This document shows positions 38,776 to 58,252 of a stretch of DNA of 64,000 nt, piece after piece (position 1 is the first letter of the stretch; every line of letters starts with the position of its first letter). Made by a program: the position numbers and the translations under genes. The DNA lies in the NCBI GenBank assembly GCA_965220965.1, contig OZ244852.1, forward strand, positions 1,024,001 through 1,088,000. Direction: 5' to 3'. The notes under the pieces were generated by a model. That model was given only the letters and a program-made list of their open reading frames with translations. It did no database searches and was not told the DNA's origin. This DNA is from Candidatus Marinacidobacterium sp. GTDB lineage: Bacteria; Acidobacteriota; Vicinamibacteria; Marinacidobacterales; Marinacidobacteraceae.

Positions 38776-38959
38776 AGCAGCCTGTTGACGAAGTCACGCG
38801 GCGTTCGAGCGGCGATGCATCCCGCCCGAACCGCACCCCTACGGGGCGCTCATCGTTGCGTGTCACTCGGAATATTGCCGATATTCCTCGCTCACGCGCC
38901 TTGTCGGCCGGGCGCCTCACCGCTCTCGGCGCTGCACGGGACTTCATCAAAAGGCCGCT
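38776..38959 (-). mobile_element. 184-bp non-coding structured repeat (MITE-like), copy 1, between tolQ and tolR
   Basis: Imperfect terminal inverted repeats AGCGGCCTTTTGATGAAGTC ... GACTTCGTCAACAGGCTGCT (minus strand); about 60 bp core identical to copy 2 at 57238-57298. Confidence 0.85.
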
Positions 38960-39800
38960 AGCGCACCAGATGCCGCTCGAGAAGCGCCACGTATTCCATC
39001 GAGAACCCGTCCATCGAGTTCCCGATGCCGCGGATGCGGGCGAGGAAGGCGTTGTAGGCGATGACCGCGGGGATCGCGGCGCCGAGACCGGCGGCGGTCG
39101 CGATCAGCGCCTCCGAGACTCCGGGCGCGACCACGCTGATGTTGGCCGCCTGCGTCGCGGCGATGTCCCGGAAGGCGTTCATGATGCCCCAGACCGTGCC
39201 GAAGAGCCCGATGAACGGCGTCGCGCCACCGGTCGTCGCCAGGAACGTCATCCGCTGCTCCAGCCGCGCCATCTCGGTGGAGGAAGCCCGGAGCATGGCG
39301 CGGGCCACCGCCTCCAGATTCGACACCCGCAGGCGGGTCGCTTCCCCGTCGTCGCTGTGCGACTGGTAGATGACCTCGTCGTATCCGGCGCGGAAGACCC
39401 GCACGAGGGGGTTTTCGGGATTCCGGGCCGCGATCTTGCCGATGTCGGCGAGCCGCTCGGCCTTGCGGAAACCGCGCAGGAACTCCGCCGACTCCCGCTC
39501 CGCGCGTCCGAGGACCCGCATTTTGGACAGGATGATCGCCCACGACACGATGCTGAAGAACAGCAGCGTCGCCAGCACGACCCACGCGACCGGACCGGCG
39601 GCGATGATCAGCGCGACGAAGCCTTCGGCGAATATGCCGCCGCCGGTCTCGATCGCAACCGAGGTGACTTCCTCGGCCTGGGGCTGCTGTTGTCCGAGGG
39701 CCGGCGACGCGAAGAGACCGGCGCCCAGGACCCCGGGAACTGCGAGCCGGAGCGGAGCGGAGACCCGACAACGCGTCAGGGTGCGAAGGAGGTGCGCCAC
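38958..39800 (-). CDS. tolQ: TolQ/ExbB proton channel protein
   Basis: FSIVSWAII, FLATTGGATPFIGLFGTVWGIM, VAPGVSEALIATAAGL..AIPAVIAYN; start uncertain (GTG 39800 or 39839). Confidence 0.93.
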   Translation of the reverse strand: MAHLLRTLTRCRVSAPLRLAVPGVLGAGLFASPALGQQQPQAEEVTSVAIETGGGIFAEGFVALIIAAGPVAWVVLATLLFFSIVSWAIILSKMRVLGRAERESAEFLRGFRKAERLADIGKIAARNPENPLVRVFRAGYDEVIYQSHSDDGEATRLRVSNLEAVARAMLRASSTEMARLEQRMTFLATTGGATPFIGLFGTVWGIMNAFRDIAATQAANISVVAPGVSEALIATAAGLGAAIPAVIAYNAFLARIRGIGNSMDGFSMEYVALLERHLVR

Positions 39801-39857
39801 CTTACAAGAATGGTACCCGGCGCCCCTTCCGCGCGCCACCTCTGCGCGGTCGGACTG

Positions 39858-41369
39858 CTAGCCCCGGATCCAGTCGAAGCTGCGCTCCACCGCGCGCCGC
39901 CAGACGGCGAGGCTCTCCCGGCGATCGGCCGCCCCCATCGCCGGCTCGAAGCGGCGCTCCTCGGCGACCGCCTCGGCGAGCTCGGCCTCCGACTCCCAGA
40001 AGCCGACCGCCAGTCCGGCGGCGATGGCGGCGCCGAGCGCGGTCGTCTCGAGGCAGCGCGGACGAACGACCGGGACACTGAGGACGCCGGCCTGGAAGCC
40101 GAGCAGCAGATCGCTGACCGTCATGCCGCCATCGACCCGAAGTTCTGACACCGCCGCGCCGGCGTCCGCGCGCATCGCCTCGATGACCTCCAGAACCTGG
40201 AACGCGGTGGCCTCGATCGCCGCCCGCGCCAGGTGGCGCCGGTCCGAATGGCGCGTGAGGCCGCAGATCACCCCCCGGGCGTCGCTTCTCCACCAGGGGG
40301 CGAAGAGGCCCGAAAACGCCGGGACGATGACGACGCCGCCTGAATCCTCGACGTCGAGCGCCAGCGCCTCGACCTCCGCGGCCGAGTCCGCGAAGCCGAG
40401 CTGGTCCCGAAGCCACTGGATGAGCGATCCGGCGACCGCCACCGACCCCTCGAGCGCGTAGTCCACCCGCGCTCCGTCCGAAAACGCCACCGTCGTCAGC
40501 AGGCCGGCGTTCGACGCCACCGCCTCGGACCCGGTGTGCATGAGCACGAAAGCGCCGGTCCCGTAGGTGCACTTCGTCTCGCCCGGCTGACGCCGGAGCT
40601 GGCCGAGGAGCGCCGCCTGCTGGTCCCCGATGACGCCGGTGATCGGGACTTCGGCGCCGAAGGGGCCGTCGGCGGTGGTCCGGCCCCAGGCCTCCGGGTG
40701 GGAGGAGGGGGCGGGCTCGGGCAGCATGCGCCGGGGGACCCGCAGGGCCTCGAGCAGCTCGTCGCTCCAGGCGAGCGCGCGGAGGTCGAACATCTGCGTC
40801 CGGCAGGCGTTCGTGTGGTCGGTGCGGTGGACCGCCCCGCCGGTCAGACGCCAGACGAGCCAGCTCTCGACCGTTCCGAACACCGCGCGCCCGGCGCGCG
40901 CCCGGTCCAGGAGGCCGTCCTGGTTCTCGAGGAGCCAGCGGAGCTTGGGGCCGGAGAAGTAGGTGGCGGCGGGAAGTCCGGTTCGCTCCCGGAGCGCCGC
41001 CGCCCCGACATCCCGCTCCAGTTCGGCGGCGAGTCCGGCGGTCCGCGTGTCCTGCCAGACGATCGCCGGCGCGAGCGGCTCGCCGGTCTTCGGGTCCCAG
41101 ACCACCGTGGTCTCCCGCTGGTTCGTGATCCCCACCGCCTCGACCGTGTCTCCGGACACTCCGGCGCTTTGAAGCGCCCCCCCGATGACCTCGAAGACGC
41201 GGTCGCTGATCTCGACGGGATCGTGCTCCACCCAGCCTGGACGCGGAGTGATCTGGCGGTGTTCGCGCTGCGCCGCGCCCCGGACGACGCCCGCGCGGTC
41301 GAAGAGAAGGACCCGACTGCTGGTGGTCCCCTGATCGATCGAGGCGATGAGCCGCTCGCCGCCGCTCAT
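39858..41369 (-). CDS. glpK: Glycerol kinase
   Basis: IDQGTTSSR, GITNQRET, WQDTRT, YFSGPK, GDQQAAL, KCTYGTG, PAFSGLFAPWW, RVDGG, ETTALGAA. Confidence 0.96.
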   Translation of the reverse strand: MSGGERLIASIDQGTTSSRVLLFDRAGVVRGAAQREHRQITPRPGWVEHDPVEISDRVFEVIGGALQSAGVSGDTVEAVGITNQRETTVVWDPKTGEPLAPAIVWQDTRTAGLAAELERDVGAAALRERTGLPAATYFSGPKLRWLLENQDGLLDRARAGRAVFGTVESWLVWRLTGGAVHRTDHTNACRTQMFDLRALAWSDELLEALRVPRRMLPEPAPSSHPEAWGRTTADGPFGAEVPITGVIGDQQAALLGQLRRQPGETKCTYGTGAFVLMHTGSEAVASNAGLLTTVAFSDGARVDYALEGSVAVAGSLIQWLRDQLGFADSAAEVEALALDVEDSGGVVIVPAFSGLFAPWWRSDARGVICGLTRHSDRRHLARAAIEATAFQVLEVIEAMRADAGAAVSELRVDGGMTVSDLLLGFQAGVLSVPVVRPRCLETTALGAAIAAGLAVGFWESEAELAEAVAEERRFEPAMGAADRRESLAVWRRAVERSFDWIRG

Positions 41370-43015
41370 TCTCCGGCCGCCGCGGCTCGTTCCTCGGTGA
41401 GCCGGAGCGCCTTTCCCGGTCGGGCGCCGGTCACCTCGCCGTCCCGCAGCACGAACTCCCCGGAGACCAGCACGTGATGCATCCCGGCGGCGTAGTGGTG
41501 GGGGTCCCCGAACGCCGCGAGCTCCTCGACCTCATCCGGATCGAACACCGCGATGTCCGCGACCCATCCGGCCTCGAGCCGTCCGCGGTCGGCAAGCCCG
41601 ATGCGCGCCGCCGGGAACGCGCTCATCTTCCGCACCGCCTCGCCGAGCGAAAACAGCCCCGCCTCCCGGACGTAGAGGCTCAGCACCCTGGCGAAGGTCC
41701 CGTAGTTCCGCGGATGCGGGACGCCCTCGCCCGGCGCCACGACGCCGCCATCGGAGGCGATCATGGTCCGCGGGTGGACCATGATCCGCCGCACGTCCTC
41801 TTCGTGCATGGCGTGGAAGACGCCGCCAAATCCACCCTTTGCCTGGATCTCGAGCGCCAGTTCGGCGCCGTTTTCGAGGTTGGATTCGAGACCCCGCTCC
41901 CGCAGGAGGTCGCCGAGGCTCTTGCCCTCGAGCGACCGGTCCCAGGAAGCGCTCGCGATAACGACGTTATCCGGACTGCCGCCGCCCCGGTCGTCGCGCA
42001 GGTTGACCTCGATGGCTTCCCGGATCCGCGCGCGTTCGGCGGGATCGGCCATCCGCTCCGCGAGAGCCTCGGCGCCCCCCTCGAGGCTCCAGGCCGGAAA
42101 CAGGATCGTGAGGCTGGTGGAGGAAGCGGTGTAGGGGTACTGATCGATCGTGACGTCCACGCCGCGCCCGACCGCCTCGTCCACCAGCCGCAGCGACTCG
42201 ACGCTCTGGCCCCACATGGGCGCCCCCACGACCTTGTGGTGAGTGAGCTGGGTCGGCAGTCCGCCCTCCTCGCCGATCCGGATCGTCTCGCGCACCGCGT
42301 CCATGAGTTCGAGCCCCTCCTCCCGCATGTGGCTGACGTGGAATCCGCCGTAGGGGGCGGCGACTTTCGCCAGTTCGATGACCTCCTCGGTCTCGGCGAA
42401 CGCCCCCGGCACGTACTTGAGCCCGGTGGAGAGGCCGAAGGCGCCCTCGCGCATCGCCTGGTCCACCAGCTCCCGCATCCGGTCCAGCTCTTCCGCCGTG
42501 GGGGCGCGGTCTTCCAGCCCGAGGACCTCGCGCCGCACCGTTCCGTGACCGACGGTGAGCCCCATGTTGATGGCCGATCCCTCCGCTTCGAACTCGTCGA
42601 GCCATTCCCCGATGGGTAGGGGCGAGCCGCCGTCCGGCCCGCCGAGAGCCGTGGTGACGCCCTGATGGAGGTAGTTCTCCGCGAGCGGGTGGCGCCCGAT
42701 CCCCCGGACGGCGTGGCTGTGGACATCCACGAACCCCGGCGCGACCACCAGCCCGGAGATATCGATCCGCGTCTCGGCCCGCGCGCCCCCGAGATCTCCG
42801 ATGGCGGCGATCCGGTCGCCCCGGATCCCCACGTCGGCGGCGCGCGCCTCGCCGCCGCTCCCGTCATGAACCTCCCCTCCAGCGAGCACGATGTCGTAGG
42901 ACGCCGCGCATCCGGCGAGGAGGATCGCGGCGAGCGCCGCGGCGGCGGCCCGCAATGTGCTGCTCTCGCCTGGCGCGCTATCGGAAATCTGCTGCATCTC
43001 GGTGGCCTCGTTCAC
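41366..43015 (-). CDS. N-acyl-D-amino-acid deacylase family amidohydrolase (probable lipoprotein)
   Basis: APGFVDVHSH, GAFGLSTGL.Y.PG, SHMR, DQYPYTASST, ASDG, HPRNYGTF; LLAGC lipobox. Confidence 0.9.
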   Translation of the reverse strand: MNEATEMQQISDSAPGESSTLRAAAAALAAILLAGCAASYDIVLAGGEVHDGSGGEARAADVGIRGDRIAAIGDLGGARAETRIDISGLVVAPGFVDVHSHAVRGIGRHPLAENYLHQGVTTALGGPDGGSPLPIGEWLDEFEAEGSAINMGLTVGHGTVRREVLGLEDRAPTAEELDRMRELVDQAMREGAFGLSTGLKYVPGAFAETEEVIELAKVAAPYGGFHVSHMREEGLELMDAVRETIRIGEEGGLPTQLTHHKVVGAPMWGQSVESLRLVDEAVGRGVDVTIDQYPYTASSTSLTILFPAWSLEGGAEALAERMADPAERARIREAIEVNLRDDRGGGSPDNVVIASASWDRSLEGKSLGDLLRERGLESNLENGAELALEIQAKGGFGGVFHAMHEEDVRRIMVHPRTMIASDGGVVAPGEGVPHPRNYGTFARVLSLYVREAGLFSLGEAVRKMSAFPAARIGLADRGRLEAGWVADIAVFDPDEVEELAAFGDPHHYAAGMHHVLVSGEFVLRDGEVTGARPGKALRLTEERAAAAGE

Positions 43016-43189
43016 GGTTCTCCCGCCGGTATCCCACCCGCGGAGCGGGTCCCCGGACCGGCGGATCAGTCTCGATGGGTGTTTTCGAGGATACCGGAGG
43101 GTTCTTCTTCCGGGGCTCCGGCCCGCTCCGGTACCCTCCCCTCCACGCGCCGGTGGCGGCCGCGAATCTCAACAGTCGGGAGTCTCTTC

Positions 43190-44569
43190 ATGCGCTCATT
43201 CTTCGGATCCCTGACCGCGCTGGCTTTGCTGGCGACCCTGCTTCCCCCGGTCGAAGCGGCGGCGCAGGAGAACCCGACGGTGCTCCCGCTGCGGGAGCGC
43301 GCCGCGCTGGTCGACCGCTGGCTCGAAGTCCGCTTCGAGACGGTCCTGCCCGAGATCATGCGCCGCGAGGGGGTGGACCTCTGGATCGTCTCGGCCCGCG
43401 AGTACAACGAGGATCCGGTCATCCGGACGATGCTCCCCTACACCTGGCTGGCCGCCCGCCGGCGCACGGTGCTGCTGTTCCACGATCGCGGCGAGCCGCA
43501 CGGCGTGGAGCGGCTGGCGGTGGCGCGGTATGACATCGGCGGGATCCCGGGCGCCTGGGACCCCGAGACCGAGCCCGATCAGTGGGCGCGGGTCGCCGAG
43601 CTGGTCCGCGAACGGGATCCGCAGGTCATCGGCCTGAACCGGTCCCGCGACTTCGGTCTGGCCGACGGCCTCACCGCGACCGAGTACGAGGCGCTCCGGG
43701 AGGCCCTGGGGCCCGACCTCTCATCGCGGCTGCTCGACGCCGAGCGGCTCGCGATCGCCTGGCTCGAGACCCGCACCCCGGAGGAAATGGCCGCCTACCC
43801 GACCGTGGTGCGCCTCGCGCGCTCCATCATGATGGAGGGGCTCTCGGAGAAGGCGATCCAGCCGGGGATGACGACCACCGAGGATCTCTCCTGGTGGCTC
43901 CGCGAGCGCATCCGGGAGCTCAAGCTCCAGACCTGGTTCCAGCCCGGGGTCTCGCTCCAGCGGCCCGAAGGCGAGATGTTCGGCGGCAACGAGGGGGGGC
44001 AGGGGGACTTCTCCTCCCGACCACCGCCGGACACGATCCTGCCGGGAGACCTTCTCCACCTGGACTTCGGCATCACCTACCTCCGGCTCAACACCGACAC
44101 CCAGATGCAGGCCTACGTGCTCCGGCCGGGCGAGACCGACGCCCCGCCCGGGCTGCGGGAGGCCTTCTCCACCGGCAACCGTCTCCAGGACATCCTGACC
44201 GACGAGTTCGTCGCCGGCCGCACCGGCAACGAGATCCTCGCCGCGGCGCTGACGCAGGCCGACCGCGAGGGGATCACCGCCTCCATCTACACCCATCCGA
44301 TCGGATTTCACGGTCACGCCGCCGGCCCCACGATCGGTCTCTGGGACCGCCAGGAGGGCGTGCCGGGGAAGGGCGACTACCCCCTGTTTCCGATGACCGC
44401 CCACTCGATCGAGCTGAACGCGCGCGTCCCGGTTCCCGAATGGGGCGGGCAGGACGTCCGGATCGCGCTCGAGGAGGACGCCATCTTCGACGGGGAGACC
44501 ACGACCTACATCGACCCGCGAGCCGAGCGCCTGCTGCTGATTCCCCGCCAGACCCGGACCCACCGGTAG
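43190..44569 (+). CDS. M24 family metallopeptidase (Xaa-Pro aminopeptidase-like), secreted
   Basis: Signal peptide; REYNEDPV, HLDFG, TDTQ, THPIGFHGHAAG, SIE, LEED metal-ligand motifs. Confidence 0.88.
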   Translation: MRSFFGSLTALALLATLLPPVEAAAQENPTVLPLRERAALVDRWLEVRFETVLPEIMRREGVDLWIVSAREYNEDPVIRTMLPYTWLAARRRTVLLFHDRGEPHGVERLAVARYDIGGIPGAWDPETEPDQWARVAELVRERDPQVIGLNRSRDFGLADGLTATEYEALREALGPDLSSRLLDAERLAIAWLETRTPEEMAAYPTVVRLARSIMMEGLSEKAIQPGMTTTEDLSWWLRERIRELKLQTWFQPGVSLQRPEGEMFGGNEGGQGDFSSRPPPDTILPGDLLHLDFGITYLRLNTDTQMQAYVLRPGETDAPPGLREAFSTGNRLQDILTDEFVAGRTGNEILAAALTQADREGITASIYTHPIGFHGHAAGPTIGLWDRQEGVPGKGDYPLFPMTAHSIELNARVPVPEWGGQDVRIALEEDAIFDGETTTYIDPRAERLLLIPRQTRTHR

Positions 44570-44603
44570 CCGGGACCGCGCGCTGCGCGGGGGGGCCGCC
44601 GGG

Positions 44604-45743
44604 CTAGGAACGGCCGGAGAGCACCCGGGTGTCGGCCACCGGCCAGTGGATGCGGACCCGGTCGCCCTCGCGGGCCAGGCTCCCGAACAGCGAGTTCCCG
44701 CGCGCCACGAGCTGGTGGCCGCCCTCGATCTCCAGCTCCATTTCCAGCCGGTCGCCGAGGAACGAGATCCGCCGGACCGCCGCGTCGGCGACGTTGAACC
44801 CCGGCGCCGCCGGGGGATGCCCGACCTGAACCACCTCGGGCCGGATCCCGAGCATGACTCTCCGGTCACCCCTCCGGTCGCGTTCGAGGCTGTCCCGGGC
44901 CGCCTCGACTCCCGGTCCCGACCGGACCCGGAACCGCCCCGCTTCGCCGGCGGCCTCCGCCGGGAGCAGGTTCATCTTGCCGACGAAGGCCGCCACGAAC
45001 GCATTCGCCGGGCGGGTGTGCAGGTCGAGCGGGGAGGCGAACTGCTGGACCCGGCCCTGATGGACCACCGCAACCCGGTCGGCCACGCTCAGCGCCTCCT
45101 CCTGGTCATGGGTGACCCAGAGCGTCGTCGCCAGGAACTCCCGCTGGAGCCGCCGCAGCAGGACCCGCAGCTCACGGCGCAGCGCGGCGTCCAGGCTCGA
45201 AAGCGGCTCATCGAGGAGCAGGACCTCGGGCCGGATGGCGAGCGCCCGGGCCACCGCCACGCGCTGCGCCTCGCCACCCGAAATCCGCCTCGGCAGCCGT
45301 TCGGCGAGGTCGCCGAGGCCCACCCGGTCCAGCATCTCGTTGGCGATTTCCGTGGCCCGCTTGCGGCTCTCCCCCCGGCGCTCGGGGCCGAAGGCGACGT
45401 TCCGCCGCAGGTTCAGGTGGGGGAAGAGGGCGTAGCTCTGAAAGACCATCCCGACGTGCCGCTTCTCGGGCGGGATCCCCTCCATCGGCTCCCCGCGGAT
45501 CCAGACCTCGCCGGAGTCCGGCTCGAGGTGGCCGGCGATGCACCGCAGGATCGTCGTCTTTCCGGCGCCGCTCGAACCGAGGAGCGCCACCAGCTCCCCC
45601 GGCTCGATGGCCAGCGTGACATCCACGACCGGTTCGGCGTCGCCGAACCGTTTCCGCAACGCATCCAGACCCAGTCCCGCCCGGCGGAAGTCCACCGGGC
45701 TCTTCTCCGGACCCTTCTGACGCCGCTCCAGCCAGGCGCTCAC
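44604..45743 (-). CDS. ABC transporter ATP-binding protein (PotA/FbpC-like, TOBE domain)
   Basis: GSSGAGKTT, VFQSYALFPHL, ISGGEAQR, LLLDEPLS, VTHDQEEA; GTGA overlap with upstream gene. Confidence 0.92.
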   Translation of the reverse strand: MSAWLERRQKGPEKSPVDFRRAGLGLDALRKRFGDAEPVVDVTLAIEPGELVALLGSSGAGKTTILRCIAGHLEPDSGEVWIRGEPMEGIPPEKRHVGMVFQSYALFPHLNLRRNVAFGPERRGESRKRATEIANEMLDRVGLGDLAERLPRRISGGEAQRVAVARALAIRPEVLLLDEPLSSLDAALRRELRVLLRRLQREFLATTLWVTHDQEEALSVADRVAVVHQGRVQQFASPLDLHTRPANAFVAAFVGKMNLLPAEAAGEAGRFRVRSGPGVEAARDSLERDRRGDRRVMLGIRPEVVQVGHPPAAPGFNVADAAVRRISFLGDRLEMELEIEGGHQLVARGNSLFGSLAREGDRVRIHWPVADTRVLSGRS

Positions 45744-47242
45744 CCCGTGGAGTCTCCGTCGAACAGCCGCCCGGCGGCGCCGTCCTCCGGAATACGCCAC
45801 GGCTCCCGAAGCGCGCTCCCGCGAGCGAACTCCCCGAATCGCTCCCGGAGCGCCCCCGGCGGAGGCGGGGCCCAGGGCGTGTCGGATTCGGCTTCCGCCT
45901 CCGCCCCGCGCTGGGTGCGGACCCGGACGCGCGCTTTCCGGACCCGCGTCCCCGGCGGATCATCCGGACGCCCGAACTCATGCGAGCGAAGCTCGATCCT
46001 TCGCGCCAGCGCCGCGGTGTCCGGCGCGAGTTCTCCGGCGTAGTCGACGGCGCCGAACGCCTCCCCCCGGAACCGGGCTTCGAGGAAGAGCGCCGCCGCC
46101 GTGGGGATGTGCATCTGTCGCGCGATCGGGCGCGCCGGGGGGTGAGCCCAGGAGGAGACCACCGTCGAGAACGGGTAACTGAGGATCTCGAGGTCGGTCA
46201 CCTCGGCGGGATCGAACCGCGGCATGGTCTCGAGCGCCGCGAGCGCCGGCTGCACCGCGCGGGAGCCGGGGTACTTCTTGAAGCCCACCCGCAGGACCGC
46301 CCCGCTGGCGGCCGCGTCCGGGAACCCGCGCGCCGGAGTGGTCCCCGCAGCCGGTTCGTCGCCGGCGCCGGAGGACGAGGCTTCGAGCGCCGCCTCGAGG
46401 CCCAGCGCCTGCCCCCAGGCGCCGTAGGCGAACTTCACCGGAGCGCCATCGGCGAACGCCCGGTAGGGGTGCATCGGGGTCCGGGCGTCGGCCAGACGGA
46501 GCGCCCGCTCGGTTCTCCCCGGGTCGTGGCCGAGAAGCCGGCTCACCACCGCGGCGGCGGCGATCGAGGCCAGCGCGCCCGGAGAGTGGACGCCGGTCCG
46601 CTCCATCGCGCCTCCGATGAGATCCCGGTGCCAGGCGCCGATGCCGCAACCGATCGCGATCGCGTCGAGGAGTTCCCCCAGGCTCCGTCCGAAAGCCTCG
46701 GCGGCCCCGACCGCGGCGGAGACGCACTCGGGGCCCACATGGAGCTCGAGCGGGTCGCCGCAGAAGCGGTTCCAGAACACCGCGCGAACCAGGTCGGTGC
46801 GGCGCCGCCCTCCGACCGGACGCCAGAGGCAGGCGTGCGGCGTCGGGGCCGCCTCGCCGTTCGGCGGACCCAGAATGGCATCACCCATCGCCGGGGTCAG
46901 GAAACCCGGAACCGGCGGCGCCGCGCCCACGGCCAGGCAGTCCGTCAGGAGATCGAGCGCGGCGCCCCGGGCCTCTTCCGAAGTCACTGCGGAAGCGATC
47001 CAGGCCGCGGCGTCTTTCAGGTCCTGCGGATGGATCCGGTCGACGAGGCGCAGATCCCGCCGGATCTCCGGCCCCGGGTGCGGCGGCGCCCCGGGACGCG
47101 GGTCGAAGGAGGGAGGCTCGATACCAGCGGCCAGCCAGGCCTGAAGCCAGGGGGCGCTCCCTTCGGGGACGGGGAGGTCCGGACTCAGACACGCGGCCAG
47201 TGAACGCGCCGGATCGGCGATATTGGGGTCGTTTGCGCTCAT
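45740..47242 (-). CDS. Divergent MmgE/PrpD family protein
   Basis: LLTDCLAV, LHVGPECVSAA, ELLDAIAIG, GVHSPG.LASIAAAA, VK, FKKYPGSR; ATGA overlap with the solute-binding protein stop. Confidence 0.72.
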   Translation of the reverse strand: MSANDPNIADPARSLAACLSPDLPVPEGSAPWLQAWLAAGIEPPSFDPRPGAPPHPGPEIRRDLRLVDRIHPQDLKDAAAWIASAVTSEEARGAALDLLTDCLAVGAAPPVPGFLTPAMGDAILGPPNGEAAPTPHACLWRPVGGRRRTDLVRAVFWNRFCGDPLELHVGPECVSAAVGAAEAFGRSLGELLDAIAIGCGIGAWHRDLIGGAMERTGVHSPGALASIAAAAVVSRLLGHDPGRTERALRLADARTPMHPYRAFADGAPVKFAYGAWGQALGLEAALEASSSGAGDEPAAGTTPARGFPDAAASGAVLRVGFKKYPGSRAVQPALAALETMPRFDPAEVTDLEILSYPFSTVVSSWAHPPARPIARQMHIPTAAALFLEARFRGEAFGAVDYAGELAPDTAALARRIELRSHEFGRPDDPPGTRVRKARVRVRTQRGAEAEAESDTPWAPPPPGALRERFGEFARGSALREPWRIPEDGAAGRLFDGDSTG

Positions 47243-48234: not shown

Positions 48235-48246
48235 GAGGAGGCTCGT

Positions 48247-49987: not shown

Positions 49988-50362
49988 TTGCGTTCCCCCC
50001 TGCGGTCGCTGGTCGGCCCCGCGCTCGCCTTCATCGCGGTCTCGGCGATCGGCGCGCTCTTCTTCCTCGATCTCTGCGATCTCATCTACGACTGCGGGTG
50101 CGCGTCCTGGTGGGCGGGCGGCGCGAGCCACTGCAACATCCAGACGCCCGGCCCGCCCGACTGCCCGTTCTGCGCGCACCCGACGGCGTCCGCGGCGGCC
50201 TGTTTCCTCGGGATCGGCGCCCAGGCCGGCATCATCCTCCGGCGGTTCTCCGCGGGCCCGCGCGTTCTCCTTCGGCGCGCCCTGCTCGCGCTGGCCGCCT
50301 TTGCGCTGGTCATCGCCGCCGCCGGAGGGGTCCTCGGCGTAGCGGTCAGCTACTGGGGCTGA
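49988..50362 (+). CDS. Hypothetical Cys-rich small membrane protein
   Basis: Three hydrophobic segments; loop CDLIYDCGC...HCNI...CPFCAH; TTG start 7 nt after TACCGT. Confidence 0.7.
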   Translation: MRSPLRSLVGPALAFIAVSAIGALFFLDLCDLIYDCGCASWWAGGASHCNIQTPGPPDCPFCAHPTASAAACFLGIGAQAGIILRRFSAGPRVLLRRALLALAAFALVIAAAGGVLGVAVSYWG

Positions 50363-50427
50363 TCCTCACGGCAACCGGTATCATCGGCCGCCGGACCCAC
50401 TCCCCCAGCGACGAAGGGAAGACCTCG

Positions 50428-50829
50428 ATGGACCGCACGAACGAAGTTCGCCACCTCCGATGGGAGGCGATGCCGAAGGAACGCCTGAAGGAGGGCCTGC
50501 ACCGTCGGATGGTGACCGGGGAGCGCGCGATGCTGACCCAGGTCTTTCTCGACAAGGGGGCGGTCGTCCCGATGCATTCGCACGAGAACGAGCAGCTCAC
50601 CTGGGTCGTCGAGGGCTGCCTCCGGTTCTGGATCGGGACCGAGGACTCCGAGCCGGTGGATGTCCACGCCGGCGAAGTCCTGGTGCTCCCCTCGCAGGTG
50701 CCCCACAAGGCGATCGCGCTGGAAGACACGCTCGACGTGGACATCTTCACGCCGCCCCGCCAGGACTGGCTTGACGGCACGGACTCTTACCTGCGGGGGA
50801 CTTCGGGAGAACAAGACGCGTCCTCGTGA
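50428..50829 (+). CDS. Cupin domain protein
   Basis: PMHSHENEQ, GEVLVLPSQVPH, DIFTPPRQDW; SD GAAGGGA. Confidence 0.92.
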   Translation: MDRTNEVRHLRWEAMPKERLKEGLHRRMVTGERAMLTQVFLDKGAVVPMHSHENEQLTWVVEGCLRFWIGTEDSEPVDVHAGEVLVLPSQVPHKAIALEDTLDVDIFTPPRQDWLDGTDSYLRGTSGEQDASS

Positions 50830-50905
50830 GGCCCGGACGGCGGCGACGGCCCGCTCCCCGGGACTTCGCCGCGCGGGGACTCCCGACGGGCCCTGAAGTC
50901 GCGCG

Positions 50906-53206
50906 GTGATGCCCAACAAGCTGCGCATCCTGGCTGCGGGGGCGGCGCTGACGGTCGTCACCGTCGTGCCCCTCTACGGCGTGGCCGGCGCCAACTTCGG
51001 CCTTCTCGAGAGCCCCATGTCGGGGGCGCTCGTCGGCATCCTGGCGGGACTCGTGGCCCTCGGCCTCTGTTTCGCGGTTCTTCACTGGGCCGGCAAGCTG
51101 GCGAGCTGGTTCAGCCGGGACGTCCTCGTCGTCATCCTCACCTCGGCGGCGGCGCTGGTGCTGCTGCGGGAATACGTCGTGGGGTGGCCGGCGGCCCTCC
51201 TTCCGGGTCTGTTCGGCGTTGCGCTCGGGACGCCGTTCCTGCTCGGGTGCGGACTGGCCCTGCTGTTCCGGCCCCGGCGGCAGCGACACCGGATCCTGGG
51301 GTCCTTCGGCGTCCTCGGCGGCGCCGCGCTCGGCGTCTGGGGGATCACCTGGCTGATGTCCCCGGGCGAGGATCCGTTCCCTCGCAACCCGCTCGCCCAG
51401 CCGGACGCGCGCGTCGCGGTGCTCGAGGATCCGGCGGATCACGGAGACTACGAGTTCACCCTGCTGACCTACGGGAGCGGTGATGACCGGCGGCGTCCGG
51501 AGTTCGGCGAGGACGTGGACATCCCCTCGCGTTCGGTGGACCTCTCGCCGGTGCTTCCCGAGTGGCGGGGATTTCGCGCCACCCACCGCGAGTGGTGGTG
51601 GGGGTTCGGGATCGAGCGCGCCCCGGTCAACGGACGGCTCCACCTCCCCGACGTGGAGTCCGGGGACCGGCGGCCGCTGGCGCTGATCGTCCACGGCAAC
51701 CACCGCATGGACGACTTCTCGGACGACGGCTACGGCTACATCAACGAGTTGCTCGCGAGCCACGGCATCGCCGCCGTCTCGGTGGACGCCAACTTCCTCA
51801 ACGGGACGTGGTCCGGCGACTTCGGGGGCCGTGAGATGCCGGCGCGGGCGATCCTGCTGCTCGAACACCTGCACCAGCTCCGCGAGTGGGCCCGGAACCC
51901 GAGGACCCCGGTCTTCAACCGGCTCGACTTCGACCGGGTGGCGCTTCTCGGACACTCGCGCGGAGGAGAGGCCGCCGCCATCGCGGCGGCGTTCAACGAA
52001 CTGGGGCGATTCCCGGACGACGCGCGCTACGAGTTCGACTACCGGTTCGGGATCGAGGCGGTCGTGGCGATCGCGCAGATCGACCGCCGTTACTCGCGCC
52101 GCATCGAACTCGAGGATGTCCATTTCCTCGCCGTCCACGGGTCCTACGACACCGACGAGCCCAGCTACCACGGCCTCCGCCAGTTCCACCGGGTGCGCCT
52201 CTCGCCGGCGACGGCGCCGGCCGGGGAAGCGGAAGAGGGCGCGGCCGACCAGGCCGGTCTCTCTTACCGGATCAAGGCCGGCGTCCTCGCGCACCGCGCC
52301 AACCACGGGCAGTTCAATTCGACCTGGGGGATGGACTCCGGTTTCCCCGGCCACTACTGGCTGAACCGCGCGCCCCTCCTTCGGGCCTGGGAGCAGCAGC
52401 GGATCGCGGCGGTCTACATCTCGGCCTTCCTCCGGGCGACCCTGCTGGGCGAGGAGCGGTTCGTTCCCCTCCTCCAGGACTACCGGGCCGGCCTGGCCCA
52501 TCTGCCGGAGACCCTCTACCAGAGCCAGTACTCCGACTCCCGGACCGGGACCGTCGCGGACTTCCGGGAAGACCTCGACCTCTCGACGGCGACGCTCCCC
52601 GACGCCGTCATCGAGGCAAGCGGTTTTGCGCGCTGGACCGAGGAGGAGGTGTTCTTCCGGGACGGATCGAAACAGGGCGACTCGGCCGCGCGGCTCACCA
52701 TAGGAAACACCGGCGACGAGGACCCCACCTACGAGATCCGGTTCGCCGAGCCCCTCGATGTGAGCGAGGAAGACGAGCTGTCGCTGGCCATCGCGTGGGA
52801 TCCGGCGCGGCCCGAACCCCCTCCCGAGGGCGGCTGGGCGCGCCCTTCGCTGGCGATGACGGTCCAGTTCGTGATGGGGGACGACACCTCCGGTTCCCCG
52901 GTCGCGGTGGCGTCGGTCCGGTCGCCCGAGCCTCCGTTCCAGGTCCGGTTCCTGAAGCCGGAGGGCCTGAACCGCGAGCGGTACCGGCGCGACATCGAGT
53001 GGATCCCGCAGACCGTGCTGATCGGGGTCGCCGGGCTGCTGCCGCCGGCGCCGGAGACGACGAACCCCCCGCAGGCGATTCCACCCGTCGTCCCGCGAAC
53101 CGTGCCCCTTCGAAGCATCCGCTTCCGCTTCGACCGCCGGGTCCCCGGAGAAGTCCTCCTCCAGGAGGTGGCGCTCCGGAGGGCCGCCAGTCCGGTCGGC
53201 GGCTGA
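50906..53206 (+). CDS. Membrane-anchored alpha/beta hydrolase
   Basis: About five N-terminal TMs; LIVHGNH, GY.Y...LASHG, nucleophile GHSRGG, ANHGQFNSTWG. Confidence 0.85.
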   Translation: MMPNKLRILAAGAALTVVTVVPLYGVAGANFGLLESPMSGALVGILAGLVALGLCFAVLHWAGKLASWFSRDVLVVILTSAAALVLLREYVVGWPAALLPGLFGVALGTPFLLGCGLALLFRPRRQRHRILGSFGVLGGAALGVWGITWLMSPGEDPFPRNPLAQPDARVAVLEDPADHGDYEFTLLTYGSGDDRRRPEFGEDVDIPSRSVDLSPVLPEWRGFRATHREWWWGFGIERAPVNGRLHLPDVESGDRRPLALIVHGNHRMDDFSDDGYGYINELLASHGIAAVSVDANFLNGTWSGDFGGREMPARAILLLEHLHQLREWARNPRTPVFNRLDFDRVALLGHSRGGEAAAIAAAFNELGRFPDDARYEFDYRFGIEAVVAIAQIDRRYSRRIELEDVHFLAVHGSYDTDEPSYHGLRQFHRVRLSPATAPAGEAEEGAADQAGLSYRIKAGVLAHRANHGQFNSTWGMDSGFPGHYWLNRAPLLRAWEQQRIAAVYISAFLRATLLGEERFVPLLQDYRAGLAHLPETLYQSQYSDSRTGTVADFREDLDLSTATLPDAVIEASGFARWTEEEVFFRDGSKQGDSAARLTIGNTGDEDPTYEIRFAEPLDVSEEDELSLAIAWDPARPEPPPEGGWARPSLAMTVQFVMGDDTSGSPVAVASVRSPEPPFQVRFLKPEGLNRERYRRDIEWIPQTVLIGVAGLLPPAPETTNPPQAIPPVVPRTVPLRSIRFRFDRRVPGEVLLQEVALRRAASPVGG

Positions 53207-53232
53207 GCGCGGACCCGTCGGGAACCGGCAGG

Positions 53233-53985
53233 GTGGCCACCAGCGGGGCCGCCGGCCCGCGGACGAGCGATCTGGCCGCCTTCGGGCCGCCGGCGCCCGC
53301 CCCCGGACTCCGGCGGCCGCTGGTCACCGTCAGCTACGCCCAGAGCCTCGACGGTTCGATTGCGGAGAACCCGGGGGAGCAGCTTCGTCTGAGCGGCGCC
53401 CGGTCCCTCGAGATGACGCACAGCCTGCGGGCGGCCCATGACGCCATCCTGGTGGGGATCGGCACGGTGCTGGCCGACGACCCCCAGCTCAACGTTCGCC
53501 TGGCGGCCGGCCGCAGCCCGGTCCCCATCGTTCTGGACAGCCGTCTCCGGCTTCCCCGCGACTCGCGCCTCGTGACGGGCGCGGCGCAGTCCGGGACTCC
53601 GGGGGTCCTCGTGGCCTCGACGGACGACGCCCCGGCCTCCGCCGCGGCGGCCCTCGAACGCCTGGGGGTCTCGGTGCTCTCCTTTCCGGGGAAGGAGGGG
53701 CGCGTCCCGCTCGGTCCGCTGTTCCGGGAGCTCACCCGCCGGGGCGTCCGCCGGGTTCTCGTCGAAGGCGGCGGGCAGGTGCTGACCTCGCTCTTTGGAG
53801 AACAGCTCGTGGACTGGGTGGTGATCACGGTGGCGCCCCGCCTGGTGGGAGGCGAGCCCGCGCTCTTCCGGATGGGCGCCCCCGTCGAACTCGAGGGCCT
53901 TCGGTGGACGCGGCTGGGGAACGATCTCGTCTTCGGCGGCCGCCCCCGCTTTGGCCGACGCGCATCCGGAGCGGCCGGGCGATGA
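53233..53985 (+). CDS. RibD C-terminal (pyrimidine reductase) domain protein
   Basis: VTVSYAQSLDGSI, HDAILVGIGTVLADDPQLNVR, VLDSRLR, VLVEGG; no deaminase domain; start approximate. Confidence 0.85.
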   Translation: MATSGAAGPRTSDLAAFGPPAPAPGLRRPLVTVSYAQSLDGSIAENPGEQLRLSGARSLEMTHSLRAAHDAILVGIGTVLADDPQLNVRLAAGRSPVPIVLDSRLRLPRDSRLVTGAAQSGTPGVLVASTDDAPASAAAALERLGVSVLSFPGKEGRVPLGPLFRELTRRGVRRVLVEGGGQVLTSLFGEQLVDWVVITVAPRLVGGEPALFRMGAPVELEGLRWTRLGNDLVFGGRPRFGRRASGAAGR

Positions 53986-55037
53986 GCGCCGGCGCGGGCG
54001 GCGGCGTCGAGCGCCTCTCGGTCTGGTTCGAGGCTCCGAAGACCATCGGGGTGCGCCGTGACCGCTGCCCTGCACCCGGCCCCGGAGAGGTCCGGGTGCG
54101 CGTCCGGTTCTGCGCGATCAGCGCGGGGACCGAGCTGGCCGCCTACCGGGGCCAGCTCGACCCGGACCTGGAGCGCGACGAAACCCTCGGCGCCTTGCGG
54201 GAGGGCGGGTTCCGGTTCCCGTTCCAGTACGGGTACGCCTCGGTGGGCCGGGTCGTGGCGCCGGAACCGACCGATGCGGACCGACCCGGGCGCCGGGTCT
54301 TCGCGTTCACGCCCCACCAGACGGTCTTCTGCGCGCCGGCCGAGGACCTTCACGCCGTGCCGGACGCCGTCCCGGACGAGCGGGCGGCGCTATTTCCGTA
54401 TCTGGAGACCGCGGTCAACCTGCTCCTCGACGGGCCGCCGCGAGTCGGCGACCGGGTGGCGGTCGTGGGGCAGGGAGCGCTGGGCCTCGCGCTGACGGCC
54501 GTGCTCGCGCGCTTTCCGCTCGGCGCGCTGGCGACGGTGGAGCCGAAAGCGGAACGCCGGAAGCTCTCGCGAGCGTTCGGCGCGCGGGAGTCCGTCGCCC
54601 CCGAGGCGGGCCCGGAAGCGGTCCGGGCTGCGCTCGGCGGCCGAGCCGAACTCGTGTTCGAGGTTTCGGGCAGCGGGGCGGGCCTCGACCTGGCCGTCCG
54701 CCTGGCCGCCCGCGAGGGGCGCGTGGTGGCCGGCTCCTGGCATGCGGGGTCGCCCACGCCGCTGGACCTCGGGGGCTGGTTCCACCGCGGCCGGGTGCGG
54801 ATCGTCTCGAGCCAGGTCAGCCGCCTGCCGCCGCTCCCGCCCGCCTGGACCGTGGAGCGTCGCCGCGCCCTCGCCTGGTCGCTGCTCGAGTCCGTTCCCC
54901 TCGAACGGCTGGTGGACCGCGTCGTCCCGTTCGGGGAGGCGGCCCGCGCCTACGCGACGCTGGATCGGGGCGAGGCCGTTTCGGTGCTGCTCTCCTGCGA
55001 GGAAGGGGCGGCCGCGTCGACGTCCCCCTCTTCCTGA
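53982..55037 (+). CDS. MDR-superfamily alcohol dehydrogenase-like oxidoreductase
   Basis: ISAGTE, FPFQYGYASVG, VFAFTPHQT, ETAVN, VVGQGALG, FHRGRVRIVSSQV; ATGA-coupled to the RibD-like gene. Confidence 0.85.
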   Translation: MSAGAGGGVERLSVWFEAPKTIGVRRDRCPAPGPGEVRVRVRFCAISAGTELAAYRGQLDPDLERDETLGALREGGFRFPFQYGYASVGRVVAPEPTDADRPGRRVFAFTPHQTVFCAPAEDLHAVPDAVPDERAALFPYLETAVNLLLDGPPRVGDRVAVVGQGALGLALTAVLARFPLGALATVEPKAERRKLSRAFGARESVAPEAGPEAVRAALGGRAELVFEVSGSGAGLDLAVRLAAREGRVVAGSWHAGSPTPLDLGGWFHRGRVRIVSSQVSRLPPLPPAWTVERRRALAWSLLESVPLERLVDRVVPFGEAARAYATLDRGEAVSVLLSCEEGAAASTSPSS

Positions 55038-57088
55038 GCCCGGGTCTCCTCGGCGAGCCACTCGTAGATCGACTGCTGCGCCGCCGCCGGCGGCCCCTCC
55101 CTGAAGGCCCGCTCGTTCAGGCCGAAGGAGTCGTGCTTTCGCGCCTTGAGGTTGTCCGCCCACTGCAGATCCAGATAACGGCGAAGCGCCGACTGGATCC
55201 TGGGGTCGTAGATCGGACACGCGATCTCGACCCGGCGGTTGAGATTCCTGGGCATCCAGTCGCTGGACGCGAGGAAATAGAGCGGGTCGCCCCCGTTGCC
55301 GAACACCAGGATCCGCGAGTGTTCGAGGTACCGGTCCAGGATCGACACCGCGCGGAAGTTCTTCTCGTCGAGGTCCTCGCAGGGCATCGAGAAGGTGCCC
55401 CGCACCAGGAGCCGGACCTGAACGCCGGCCTCGGCGGCGTCGCGCAGCAGGGCCACGATTTCCGGGTCGGAGAGGTGGTTCAGCTTGGCCTCCACCAGGG
55501 CGGGTTCTCCGGCGCGGGCGCGCTCGGTCTCGGCGAGGATCAGCTCGCGGAGGTGGGAACGGAGCGCCCAGGGGGCGACCACCAGATGGTCCATCTCACG
55601 CGACCCGTAGGGCCGCTCGATCACCCGGAGCAGGCGCCGGATGTCCTCACAGATGCCGGGGTGGGCGGTCAGCAGGAAGTGGTCGGCGTAGAGGTTGGCG
55701 GTGACCTCGTTCAGGTTGCCGGTTCCGATGAAGCCGTAGAGCCCCGACTTGCCCTTGCGGACCCGTTCGATGAGGCCCACCTTGGCGTGGATCTTGAGCC
55801 CGGGCGGGCCGAAGAGCACCGTGACGCCTTCCCGGGTCAGTTCGTCGGTGAACTCGATGTTCGAGGTCTCGTCGAAGCGGGCGGTCAGTTCGACGACCGC
55901 GGTGACCTGCTTCCCGTTCCGCGCCGCGTTGATCAGCGCCCGCACCACGCCCGAGTTCGTCGCGACCCGGTAGAGCGTCACGCCGATCCGGGTCACCTTG
56001 GGGTCGATGGCCGCCTCGCGCAACAGATCGAGCACGTAGGAGAAGCGCTGGTAGGGGGTGTGGATGAGGATGTCCCGGGTCCGCATCGCCCGCATCACGG
56101 AGCGCCTTCGATCCAGCTCCGGGATCCTCAGGTTCGGCCACTTGCGGTGCCGATGGGCCCGGTCGACCCGCGGAAAGTCGATGAAGTCCTTGAAGTTGTG
56201 GTGGCGCCCGCCCGGAACGAGCACCCTCGGGTCATGGACCTGAAGCCCCTGACGGACCATCCCGAGCAGGTCGTCGGGCATGGCTTCGTCGTAGACGAAC
56301 CGGACGAGGGCGGCCGTCCGCCGCCGCTTGACGCTCTTCTCCACCCGCTGGAGAAAGCTGTCCTTCGGGTGCCCCTCGAGGTCGAGACCCGCGTCGCGGG
56401 TGAGCTTCACGACGAAACCCGCCGCGGACTTCACCCGGAAGATCGAGAAGACGTCGGGCAGGCGGTGCCGGATGATGTCCTCGAGCAGGATGATCGTGAC
56501 CCGATCGTCCGCGTCGGGGAGGCGAACGAAGCGGGGGACGGCGCGGGTCGGCACATCGACCATCGCGTAGATCGGGTCGCGCTGACCGACGCGGATCACC
56601 CGCACCGCGAGGTAGATCTCCCGCTCGTCGAGGTTCAGCACCCGGTCATCCCGGCCGAGCATGATGGGGGTGATGTGGGGGCGGACCTTGCCGTCGAAGA
56701 AGTCCCGGACGAAGTCCGCCTGTTCCGGATTCAGGTCCGCCTCGGTGACGATCCGGATGCCGTGATCCTCGAGACGCGCCAGGACCTGGTGGTAGGTGCG
56801 CAGGAAGATCGTCTGGTCCCGGAGGATCCGCCGCTGGATCTCCGCGAGCAGCGCGCCCGCGCGGCGGCCCTCGGCGTCACGCGCCGCCCGCCGCCGCACG
56901 GTGGCGACGCGGACCCGGTAGAACTCGTCCTGGTTGCTCGAGAAGATGCCGAGGAAACGAAGCCGCTCCAGCAGCGGCGTGGATTCGTCCCGAGCCTCCT
57001 GGAGCACGCGGGCGTTGAACGCGAGCTGGGACAGCTCGCGCGGGATGAGTTCCGTCGACCGGGCCGTCGACCTGGACTGATGCGCCAT
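54950..57088 (-). CDS. ppk1: Polyphosphate kinase 1
   Basis: RELSQLAFNARVL, FSSNQDEF, TLYRV, ELTARFDE, LKIHAK, GTGN, RYLEHSRI, M.RNLNRRVE. Confidence 0.96.
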   Translation of the reverse strand: MAHQSRSTARSTELIPRELSQLAFNARVLQEARDESTPLLERLRFLGIFSSNQDEFYRVRVATVRRRAARDAEGRRAGALLAEIQRRILRDQTIFLRTYHQVLARLEDHGIRIVTEADLNPEQADFVRDFFDGKVRPHITPIMLGRDDRVLNLDEREIYLAVRVIRVGQRDPIYAMVDVPTRAVPRFVRLPDADDRVTIILLEDIIRHRLPDVFSIFRVKSAAGFVVKLTRDAGLDLEGHPKDSFLQRVEKSVKRRRTAALVRFVYDEAMPDDLLGMVRQGLQVHDPRVLVPGGRHHNFKDFIDFPRVDRAHRHRKWPNLRIPELDRRRSVMRAMRTRDILIHTPYQRFSYVLDLLREAAIDPKVTRIGVTLYRVATNSGVVRALINAARNGKQVTAVVELTARFDETSNIEFTDELTREGVTVLFGPPGLKIHAKVGLIERVRKGKSGLYGFIGTGNLNEVTANLYADHFLLTAHPGICEDIRRLLRVIERPYGSREMDHLVVAPWALRSHLRELILAETERARAGEPALVEAKLNHLSDPEIVALLRDAAEAGVQVRLLVRGTFSMPCEDLDEKNFRAVSILDRYLEHSRILVFGNGGDPLYFLASSDWMPRNLNRRVEIACPIYDPRIQSALRRYLDLQWADNLKARKHDSFGLNERAFREGPPAAAQQSIYEWLAEETRAQEEGDVDAAAPSSQESSTETASPRSSVA

Positions 57089-57174
57089 CGTTTCGGGGGA
57101 GCTGCGGTCCTGACCCGCCGGCGCCGCGGGCTTCGGCCGGAGCCGCGCCGCGCGGTGTGCTCTGACCGCATTCG

Positions 57175-57189
57175 TACACTAGACGAATG
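57175..57189 (+). promoter_or_regulatory. -10 hexamer TACACT 6 nt upstream of ATG 57187 (leaderless promoter for the SDR gene)
   Basis: ttcgTACACTagacgaATG; an overlapping TAGTGT on the minus strand could serve ppk1. Confidence 0.5.
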
Positions 57190-58252
57190 CCGCCGAGCGG
57201 AGCGCCTCCGACCGCTAGCAGTCCGTTGATAAAGTCGCGTGCAGCGCCGAGAGCGGTGAGGCGCCCGGCCGACAAGGCGCGTGAGCGAGGAATATCGGGA
57301 ATATTGCGAGCGAAACGCAACGATGAGCGCCCCGAAGGGGCGTGATTCGGGCGGGGCCAGTCCTCCCGGTGGGGGCCATCGCCGCTCGAACGCCGCGGGA
57401 CTTTGTCAACGGGCTGCTCAAGACCGAGGCGGGGCCGCGGAAGGCTGGACGCTGGTCACCGGCGCCTCCATGGGAATCGGCCTGGAACTGGCGCGGATCG
57501 CCGCCGCGGACGGCCGGAATCTGGTGCTCGTGGCCCGGACGGCTTCGCTCCTCGAAGAGCTCGCCGCCGATCTGCGCAGCGCGCACGGCGTCGAGGTCCG
57601 GTGCCTGCCGGTCGACCTCACCGAGCCCGGGGCGGCCGACCGGATCCATTCGGCGACCGAGGAGGCCGGCATCGAGGTGGACTTCCTGGTGAACAACGCC
57701 GGCGTCGGGTTCAGCGGGGCGTTCCATCAGACGGCCGTGAAGCGACACCGCTTGATGCTCTCGCTGAATCTGGGGGCGCTCGTGGAGCTCTCGTCCCGCT
57801 ATCTGCCGGCCATGGTGGAGCGGGGCGGGGGACGCATCCTGAACGTGGGATCGGCGGCGGGCTTCGTCCCGGGCCTCGGATTCACCACCTACGCCGCGAC
57901 CAAGAGCTTCGTGCTCTATTTCACCGAGGGGCTCCATGCAGAGCTGGGCGGTACCGGGGTCACGGCGAGCGTGCTCGCCCCCGCCACGGTGGCGACCCCG
58001 TTCCTCGACAAGGCGGGCATTCCCGGGGCCCCGCGCTGGCTGCGGTGGTCGGTCGCGGACGCCCGGGCGGTCGCCGAGGCCGGCTATCGCGGAGCGCTGC
58101 GCGGCCGGGTCGTGATCACCCCGGGCTTCGCGTTTCCGGTGGCGATTCTCTCCCGGTTCTTTCCGCGCCGGGCCTGGCGCTGGATCGGGCGGCAGGTGGC
58201 GCGCCGGTTTCTCCGCAACGCTCCGGCCGCTCCCGGAGGGAACGCTTCGTGA
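57187..58252 (+). CDS. Short-chain dehydrogenase/reductase, 5' end interrupted by the repeat (possible pseudogene or restart at GTG 57281/ATG 57323)
   Basis: LVTGASMGIG, LVNNAG, ILNVGS, YAATK; ATG 57187 joins the SDR frame only if 57217-57418 is removed. Confidence 0.8.
57217..57418 (+). mobile_element. 202-bp non-coding structured repeat (MITE-like), copy 2, inserted after codon 10 of the SDR gene
   Basis: Terminal inverted repeats AGCAGTCCGTTGATAAAGTC ... GACTTTGTCAACGGGCTGCT; homologous to 38776-38959 over nearly the full length. Confidence 0.85.

Follow-up and report, generated by a model that had tools for sequence, protein, structure and literature searches.

A 64,000-nucleotide stretch of the genome of a Candidatus Marinacidobacterium sp. 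(the window; C1:1024001-1088000 of G000, the genome that holds it) contains two copies of a small dispersed element whose ends can pair with each other over a long stem. This locus raises the question of whether the folding of one strand is itself under selection or is a by-product of the terminal inverted repeats (TIRs). An earlier note on this DNA had argued that the fold is selected as single-stranded RNA or DNA (ssDNA), and had read it in the sense of the host transcript. Strand-specific covariation among related copies supports the first part of that claim, the second part did not stand, and the element carries the standard marks of a DNA transposon derivative. [quoted passage not shown] For this family we observed mobility, target duplication, covariation, strand asymmetry and random orientation.

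We searched the whole of G000, which consists of two contigs (C1, 2.88 Mb at 71.3% GC; C2, 0.36 Mb at 73.4% GC), with blastn. The search for more copies, which the earlier note had proposed, was positive: 31 are full length, with lengths that rise stepwise (180, 195, 198, 216, 230/231, and 249 nt), and fragments occur in addition. All lie on C1; contig C2 (363 kb, 11% of G000) holds none of the 31 full copies. Across the 40 related genomes searched, the element has matches in 19 of the 24 genomes from the same family, and weaker matches in the same order. A 24-mer pattern taken from the left core occurs in at least 113 stretches of public genomes, which are named as Vicinamibacteria, Vicinamibacterales, and "Candidatus Marinacidobacterium" metagenome-assembled genomes (MAGs). 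We detected no match to the element in a plasmid collection (blastn, distant mode). Against Rfam 15, the window had no match at gathering score, and seven copies searched at E <= 1 gave only a chance hit to sR36 (E 0.77); as far as Rfam goes, the element belongs to no curated RNA family. The literature searched holds no description of the element family, although the supplementary MITE catalogue of PMC11602168, which was outside that search, may list it.

For structural analysis, we combined the 31 G000 copies with 60 copies from 13 relatives into one alignment (A2; 91 copies, 14 genomes, 84 distinct rows). RNAalifold predicted 49 base pairs from A2, and in 23 of these both sides have changed with pairing kept. 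Over the 84 distinct rows, standard pairs filled 98.3% of cells (shuffled mean 92.0%), pairs with two-sided change numbered 23 (shuffled mean 11.3), and the covariation score was 0.247 (shuffled mean 0.126). The observed value was reached by 0 of 500 shuffles for each of these three measures, counts that are not probabilities because the structure was derived from the same sequences and the copies are related. When the 3' partners were slid by 1 to 3 columns as a control, 33 to 46% of cells paired. The TIRs form helix 1 (17 pairs, 98.9% of cells pairing), and 10 of its 17 pairs show two-sided change. Compensatory change also reaches beyond the TIRs, into inner helices 5, 6, and 9 (4/8, 3/8, and 3/4 pairs, respectively), which lie 33 to 60 nt from the ends. 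Folded as RNA, one copy reached -113.7 kcal/mol, compared to -76.2 +/- 4.3 kcal/mol for 200 shuffles (z = -8.7). Covariation supports the structure. One detail of the earlier description, the GNA triloop, is not upheld as a conserved feature: GNA loops are frequent in A2, and the loop reads GAA, GTA, AAA, GGA, TCCA, TCT, and others. A likeness to attC R boxes and the presence of promoter hexamers were judged by eye only and are unsupported; the ends of relatives read GTGGA/TCCAC, not GTTRRRY/RYYYAAC.

The folding is specific to one strand. Without a strand preference, a transition in a paired position should yield G·U, which pairs on one strand only, or A·C equally often. Among the non-Watson-Crick cells of the 49 pairs, we counted 371 G·U, spread over 33 columns, compared to 13 A·C in eight columns; 13 of the G·U columns have the mismatch in at least five rows, and none of the A·C columns do. 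The alignment folds at -73.6 kcal/mol in the sense direction (50 pairs) and -10.7 kcal/mol in the antisense direction (23 pairs). Sense RNA was the more stable in 84 of 84 distinct copies (means -112.6 versus -91.0 kcal/mol). For the single copy described above, shuffled antisense sequences averaged -67.1 kcal/mol, which gives the antisense strand a z of -5.6. Together with the two-sided changes outside the TIRs, the excess of G·U over A·C and the uniform result across the 84 copies support folding that is strand-specific and kept by compensatory change beyond the terminal repeats.

The element is mobile DNA, as indicated by empty orthologous sites and target duplication. The site of copy 1 is empty in five of five relatives (G001, G002, G004, G006, and G007), in which the genes on either side of it are adjacent, and the site of copy 2 is empty in all four relatives that have both flanks (G001, G002, G006, and G007). 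Contigs of two DNA runs were compared to copy 1 and none joins across an empty site; short-read contigs break inside the repeat and are uninformative on polymorphism. The flanks are YTAR words. Both flanking tetranucleotides are identical in 8 of the 31 G000 copies and in 31 of the 60 copies from relatives, and this total of 39 in 91 exceeds the 26.1 +/- 2.6 obtained by shuffling right flanks among the copies of each genome (39 was reached in 0 of 5000 shuffles). The left flanks of the 91 copies are most often CTAG (37), TTAG (10), and TTAA (9), and the right flanks CTAG (35), CTAA (12), TTAA (8), and TTAG (6). Outer flank letters co-vary (T/T 16, C/C 48, T/C 5, C/T 2), and rare words are matched on both sides (CTTG/CTTG, TATT/TATT, CTAA/CTAA), which argues for a direct duplication rather than an extended inverted repeat. 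The fourth letters (l4/r4) disagree as G/A in 20 of the 91 copies. Overall, we take the duplication to be 3 to 4 bp long and centred on TA.

The two window copies, their flanks, and their internal parts are as follows.

38778..38957, minus strand: copy 1 of the element, 180 nt, the basic form without a module; borders from the family alignment and the end motifs
38958..38961, minus strand: left flanking tetranucleotide of copy 1, CTAG
38774..38777, minus strand: right flanking tetranucleotide of copy 1, CTGA, a degenerate duplicate
38895..38918, minus strand: conserved internal block of copy 1, the same block as in copy 2
57219..57416, plus strand: copy 2 of the element, 198 nt, that is, 180 nt plus one 18-nt module
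57215..57218, plus strand: left flanking tetranucleotide of copy 2, CTAG; relatives have a single TTAG at the matching place
57417..57420, plus strand: right flanking tetranucleotide of copy 2, CTCA, degenerate
57258..57281, plus strand: most conserved internal block, copy 2, GAGGCGCCCGGCCGACAAGGCGCG; within the left half of the inner helices
57356..57376, minus strand: module nested in copy 2, GCCAGTCCTCCCGGTGGGGGC as read on the plus strand; net gain 18 nt; among G000 copies, 9 of 31 have the module at this site

These borders lie 2 nt inside those first proposed at each end of both copies, and the copies themselves are real. Read in the window, the closing stems are those described before, CGGCCTTTTGATGAAGTC/GACTTCGTCAACAGGCTG in copy 1 and CAGTCCGTTGATAAAGTC/GACTTTGTCAACGGGCTG in copy 2; pairs 6 and 13 are altered on both sides, and G-T accounts for four of the five non-Watson-Crick positions of the two stems. 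The two copies have in common an identical core of about 62 nt, close to the 60 bp given earlier, and differ by one 18-nt indel.

We tallied orientation to genes with a gene model based on GC content at third codon positions (GC3), which covered 81% of C1. Twenty-two copies lie between co-directional genes, 11 of them sense and 11 antisense; seven more lie between divergent genes and two between convergent genes. Reading the fold in the sense of the host transcript is therefore not borne out. Random orientation to genes, which the earlier note had listed as a refuting outcome, refutes a role in host transcripts, but not the fold. With respect to replication, GC skew in G000 does not suffice to locate an origin (873 of 1732 gene models are co-oriented). 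In G007, we found no replication-strand bias among 38 left ends, and the best origin/terminus split was reached by 1553 of 2000 shuffles.

Conservation is not evenly distributed along the element. Of the columns invariant in A2, only three fall in positions 1 to 17 and three in 164 to 180, compared to 13 in positions 37 to 63 and seven in 98 to 107. The stretches from the 24-mer scan contain 141 core occurrences, which form 27 clusters. Termini vary widely among the clusters (for example CAGCCTGTGGTGAAACC..., GGAGTCTGTCCCGGTAATG..., and GGGTCCGTCCAGAAATAAG..., with a markedly different end in L261), and each divergent terminus still pairs with its own partner arm. Motifs of the right arm, which the query did not contain, occur in 20 to 24 of the 27 cluster representatives, and the terminus of the G000 type in 11 of 27; because this sample was selected by the core itself, the contrast between core and ends in the 27 clusters is indicative only. 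Across subfamilies, the core is better conserved than the termini. By anatomy (180 to 249 bp, below the ~300-bp bound for MITEs, 31 full copies in G000, TIRs, target duplication, and empty sites), the element is a mobile MITE, predicted to be non-coding, and it is unusual in its one-strand fold, in a core more constrained than its ends, and in hosting an 18-nt repeat.

These observations suggest the following scheme. The element would most likely be moved in trans by a putative DDE-type transposase, which would cut a YTAR site centred on TA with a short stagger, in the target style of the IS5/PIF-Harbinger superfamily. The rod-like fold of one strand would span the whole element, and selection would keep it through two-sided changes in the closing stem and the inner helices. 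The folded single strand, either ssDNA at replication or a transcript of the element, could present both ends and the core to the mobilising protein. Since the copies show no preferred orientation to host genes, it is most likely the propagation of the element itself, and not host mRNAs, on which selection acts. A separate GC-rich mini-hairpin repeat of 19 nt has inserted at several positions within copies, each time with a gain of 18 nt.

Finding the corresponding enzyme was the aim of several searches. We tested seven transposase families (PF13359, PF13358, PF13586, PF01548, PF00665, PF01797, and PF01609) and detected none of them in the window, so for these seven the statement that the window encodes no transposase holds. 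A scan of 20 PF01609 loci of relatives for element ends and an inverted-repeat search of two insertion sequence (IS) loci gave nothing. In G007, the element copies are near-identical, which indicates recent activity there, and that genome has no DDE_3, IS110, rve, or Y1 match; PF13358 (DDE_3) was detected in one of five genomes, G021. Y1 (PF01797) has no match in G000, G002, G006, or G007, all four of which hold the element, and this speaks against a system of the REPIN or IS200/IS605 type. We also scanned 175 loci (1.1 Mb) for pairs of ends 600 to 3600 bp apart; this gave seven candidates, and core positions and open reading frames (ORFs) were tabulated for six. The most promising (in L270), the only one read in sequence, turned out to be a gene with a MITE copy on each side. 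An autonomous element with the same ends, which the earlier note had proposed to look for, was not found in the loci and genomes compared, a search that is not exhaustive.

Several results weigh against a MITE moved by a DDE enzyme and folded under selection. G000 has no match to PF01609, PF13359, PF13358, PF13586, PF01797, or PF01548, and its three rve-family genes are those of an IS of 2142 bp whose ends are unlike those of the element. Pairs of TIRs 260 to 6000 bp apart in G000 are only neighbouring MITEs or chance. In G007, where we set IS borders by copy comparison, the two PF01609 IS so defined, an IS5-like element of 1225 bp (ends GGAAGGTCTGA...) and another IS of 1917 bp, also have ends unlike the element, with 2 of 13 PF01609 matches falling outside the comparison. 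The length of the duplication is ambiguous in the same genome, where left flanks are CTAG in 10 of 10 copies and right flanks are CTAG in six and CTAA in four. One G002 subfamily duplicates AATT; in a comparison with IS630/Tc1-mariner, most flanks have the central TA, yet the co-variation of the outer letters is that of a longer duplication. Termini that differ strongly between subfamilies while the core is kept are the reverse of what sequence-specific end binding predicts. As for the fold, base composition accounts for part of the strand asymmetry, and mismatches seen in a single row are without bias (6 G·U versus 4 A·C). These singletons are likely post-insertion mutations, and their lack of bias fits selection on propagating lineages rather than on each resident copy.

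We weighed four other explanations. One of them proposes a single-strand, structure-recognised mobile element whose enzyme would read the folded core and not the termini, together with an independent 18- to 19-nt "nano-element", such that layered non-coding replicators with no encoded protein would exist in Vicinamibacteria. If the folded core rather than the terminal sequence were recognised, the closing stem would be free to drift by compensated changes. We consider this proposal unlikely.

An ordinary MITE, that is, a long imperfect palindrome derived from IS ends, with a fold that is a by-product and an asymmetry that comes from composition and a few changes passed on by master copies, would account for the TIRs, the target duplication, and the empty sites. 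It would also account for the orientation, which is random to genes in G000 and to replication in G007, for the unbiased singletons, and for the finding that shuffled sense sequences fold about 9 kcal/mol better than shuffled antisense sequences. However, it does not predict 13 pair columns with G·U in at least five rows when A·C is so frequent in none, nor two-sided changes in inner helices that lie well away from the ends, in lineages with quite different termini. In addition, all subfamilies have the same asymmetric core, which points to one folded ancestor rather than to repeated palindrome formation. Given these data, an ordinary MITE seems quite improbable.

We give a similarly low probability to a structure-dependent element with a new mechanism, in which the one-strand folded core (RNA or ssDNA) would be recognised and cut at the base of the closing stem, the stem sequence would be free, and no classical end-binding transposase would take part. 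The concentration of invariant columns in the core, the wider occurrence of right-arm motifs than of the G000-type terminus among the cluster representatives, the strand asymmetry in every distinct copy, and the lack of a partner IS in any genome examined are consistent with such a mechanism. However, DDE transposases typically leave a short duplication of a target centred on TA, Y1/HUH enzymes were not found in the four genomes named above, and the replication-strand bias that ssDNA transposons show was not detected in G007. At each end, the paired motif CCCGGCTGA/TCAGCCGGG might just as well be a subterminal site for double-strand binding, and the diverged copies were sampled by means of the core sequence itself. 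Finally, a regulatory RNA recruited by the host (an mRNA stabiliser, processing site, or attenuator) and kept for its effect on neighbour genes is very improbable, for although copies are almost always intergenic and often 0 to 20 nt from a stop or start codon, copy 1 lies in sense direction in an operon, and other MITEs act in this way according to a review (PMC3184786), copies are as often antisense as sense, insertion sites are not common to different genera, orthologous sites are empty, and copies lie beside stop codons because the target contains TAG or TAA.

MITEs are usually seen as passive deletion derivatives, constrained only at the ends that bind transposase. The present family shows the opposite over a deep phylogenetic span: the ends vary, and the one-strand fold and the core are held. 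It is therefore a good natural system for learning what a non-autonomous element needs for copying, a folded ssDNA or RNA or the ends of a duplex. In Correia/NEMIS elements (Neisseria), ERIC, and RUP, the terminal repeats are the conserved part. The element is unlike these in that its termini diverge between subfamilies and its internal core is nearly invariant, and a strong G·U-only mismatch spectrum was measured for it. It resembles them and other foldback MITEs in its TIRs, TA-containing target, and long single-strand hairpin and in their size of 100 to 200 bp, as given in PMC3184786. The closest described case is bcr1 (~155 bp), a repeat from the Bacillus cereus group (Klevan 2007; Kristoffersen 2011, via PMC3184786). 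It is transcribed and, like the element, is small, mobile, dispersed, and non-coding, makes a short target duplication, and keeps an RNA structure through compensatory changes. Unlike the element, with its one long rod and 3- to 4-bp YTAR duplication, bcr1 is described there as making duplications of 5 bp and as folding into a cruciform whose two stem-loops are independent (PMC3184786). The lineages also differ, the element being from Acidobacteriota, and there is no sequence similarity between the two.

Members of the IS5 family and of PIF/Harbinger use YTAR/TWA targets and make 3- to 4-bp duplications. The element is like them in its 3- to 4-bp duplication of CTAG/TTAG/TTAA-type sites. It is unlike the IS5 family in that we found no IS5-family element with matching ends, the ends of the IS5-like element of G007 being different, and in the AATT duplicated by one G002 subfamily. 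To our knowledge, REPINs have no target duplications. The element has one, and it differs from REPINs and from the palindrome-associated transposable elements (PATEs) of IS200-IS605 also in the lack of Y1 in G000, G002, G006, and G007 and of replication-strand bias in G007. It is like the REPIN/REP system (RAYT) as treated in PMC3116915 and PMC3733652 in that these are long-lived, vertically persisting hairpin repeats for which single-strand folding matters.

Both window copies bear on the genes beside them. Copy 1 lies between the stop codon of an exbB/tolQ-like gene upstream and the start of an exbD/tolR-like gene downstream. The TAG at its left junction (38960-38958) is the present stop of the exbB-like gene, which relatives close with TGA at the undisrupted site; the ancestral TGA is kept in the CTGA to the right of copy 1, 3 nt before the GTG start (38771-38769) of the exbD-like gene. 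A 180-nt hairpin is now within the exbB-exbD operon, in sense direction (window 38769-38961). Directly 3' of copy 2 is a short-chain dehydrogenase gene without the start codon that is found in G001 and G002 (ATGAACGGG there, GAGGCGGGG in G000). Its reading frame is open back into copy 2 (window 57281-57520), with an in-frame GTG (57281) and ATG (57323) inside the element and an in-frame TGA at the left end of the copy. Judging from the reading frame, copy 2 may now supply the start of the dehydrogenase, or the gene may be dead. Elements of this family thus lie right at stop and start codons (one stop is provided by copy 1, and copy 2 is 5' of a gene without its ancestral start), and neighbours of this kind will be mis-modelled by gene callers.

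The 24-mer, and sometimes most of the element, also occurs in MAGs labelled Polyangiaceae, Thermodesulfobacteriota, Bryobacterales, and Ca. Rariloculaceae (L187, L176, L210, L188, and L229). The Ca. Rariloculaceae occurrence is in a complete chromosome, but comprises the left half of the element only. Occurrences outside Vicinamibacteria may reflect horizontal spread or mis-binned contigs.

The length steps of the element come from a module, CCCC(C/T)ACCGGGAG(A/G)AC(C/T)GG, which forms a mini-hairpin (CCGG-GAGAA-CCGG) with a C-rich tail. What the earlier note had described as an 18-nt side region, a length variant of the element, is instead a nested copy of this separate short repeat. The module is present or absent at six places in A2, in both orientations; at one of these places, it has one orientation in G000 copies and the opposite in a G006 copy. 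In other genomes, insertion at a seventh place, within helix 5, is frequent. Of the 31 G000 copies, 9 carry the module at site A and 10 at site B (both in 6, A only in 3, B only in 4, and neither in 18), a pattern which suggests that the sites behave independently. In one copy, L104, the insertion is a clean 18 nt; in others the module takes the place of 2 to 3 nt, with 18 nt gained on balance in every case.

Counting copies of the 19-mer with at most one mismatch gave 376 in G002, 695 in G014, 773 in G021, 68 in G006, and 2 in G007, compared to 0 in all five genomes for a reversed control pattern; G000 has about 17 at the same threshold. The module is therefore hyper-abundant in some genera of the family, and it appears to be a very short dispersed repeat in its own right, one that has inserted into the element again and again. 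The 19-nt module resembles REP in size, GC content, and copy number. Its best analogue is the small dispersed repeats (SDRs) of cyanobacteria, which Elhai et al. reportedly described in 2008 as ~20-nt repeats inside longer repeats, present or absent at homologous sites and associated with hairpins. The module is unlike SDRs in phylum and sequence, in its constant net gain of 18 nt with usually 2 to 3 nt replaced, and in its 44-nt tandem arrays in a relative. As an insert that appears to spread independently, it bears on how very short repeats such as REP and SDRs multiply.

Outside the window, the region C1:2108000-2116000 of G000 consists of complex dispersed and tandem repeats at 80 to 93% identity and holds element copies e23, e24, and e26. 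Copy e24 is the longest (249 nt), with four modules. We considered e23 and e24 as a recent segmental duplicate that would show module gain and ruled this out, the region being an old complex repeat at 85 to 90% identity. Three copies of a second G000 repeat, all outside the window (C1:329573, 329873, and 1161496), also contain the 19-mer, which there immediately follows a G/C hairpin; this repeat reads …atcgaaacttg…caagtttcgat… and then gggaggggg-ttc-cccctccc. In G002, the module lies inside a different small repeat (…GCCGGACTCCAGTC…GCCGGG-module-CGCCGGACTCCAGTCCGGCAATT; L281, G002:C1:62040-62420; L286-L289). Tandem arrays of that module-bearing repeat have a period of 44 nt, and the repeat terminates in AATT, which is also the flanking word of the element's G002 subfamily.

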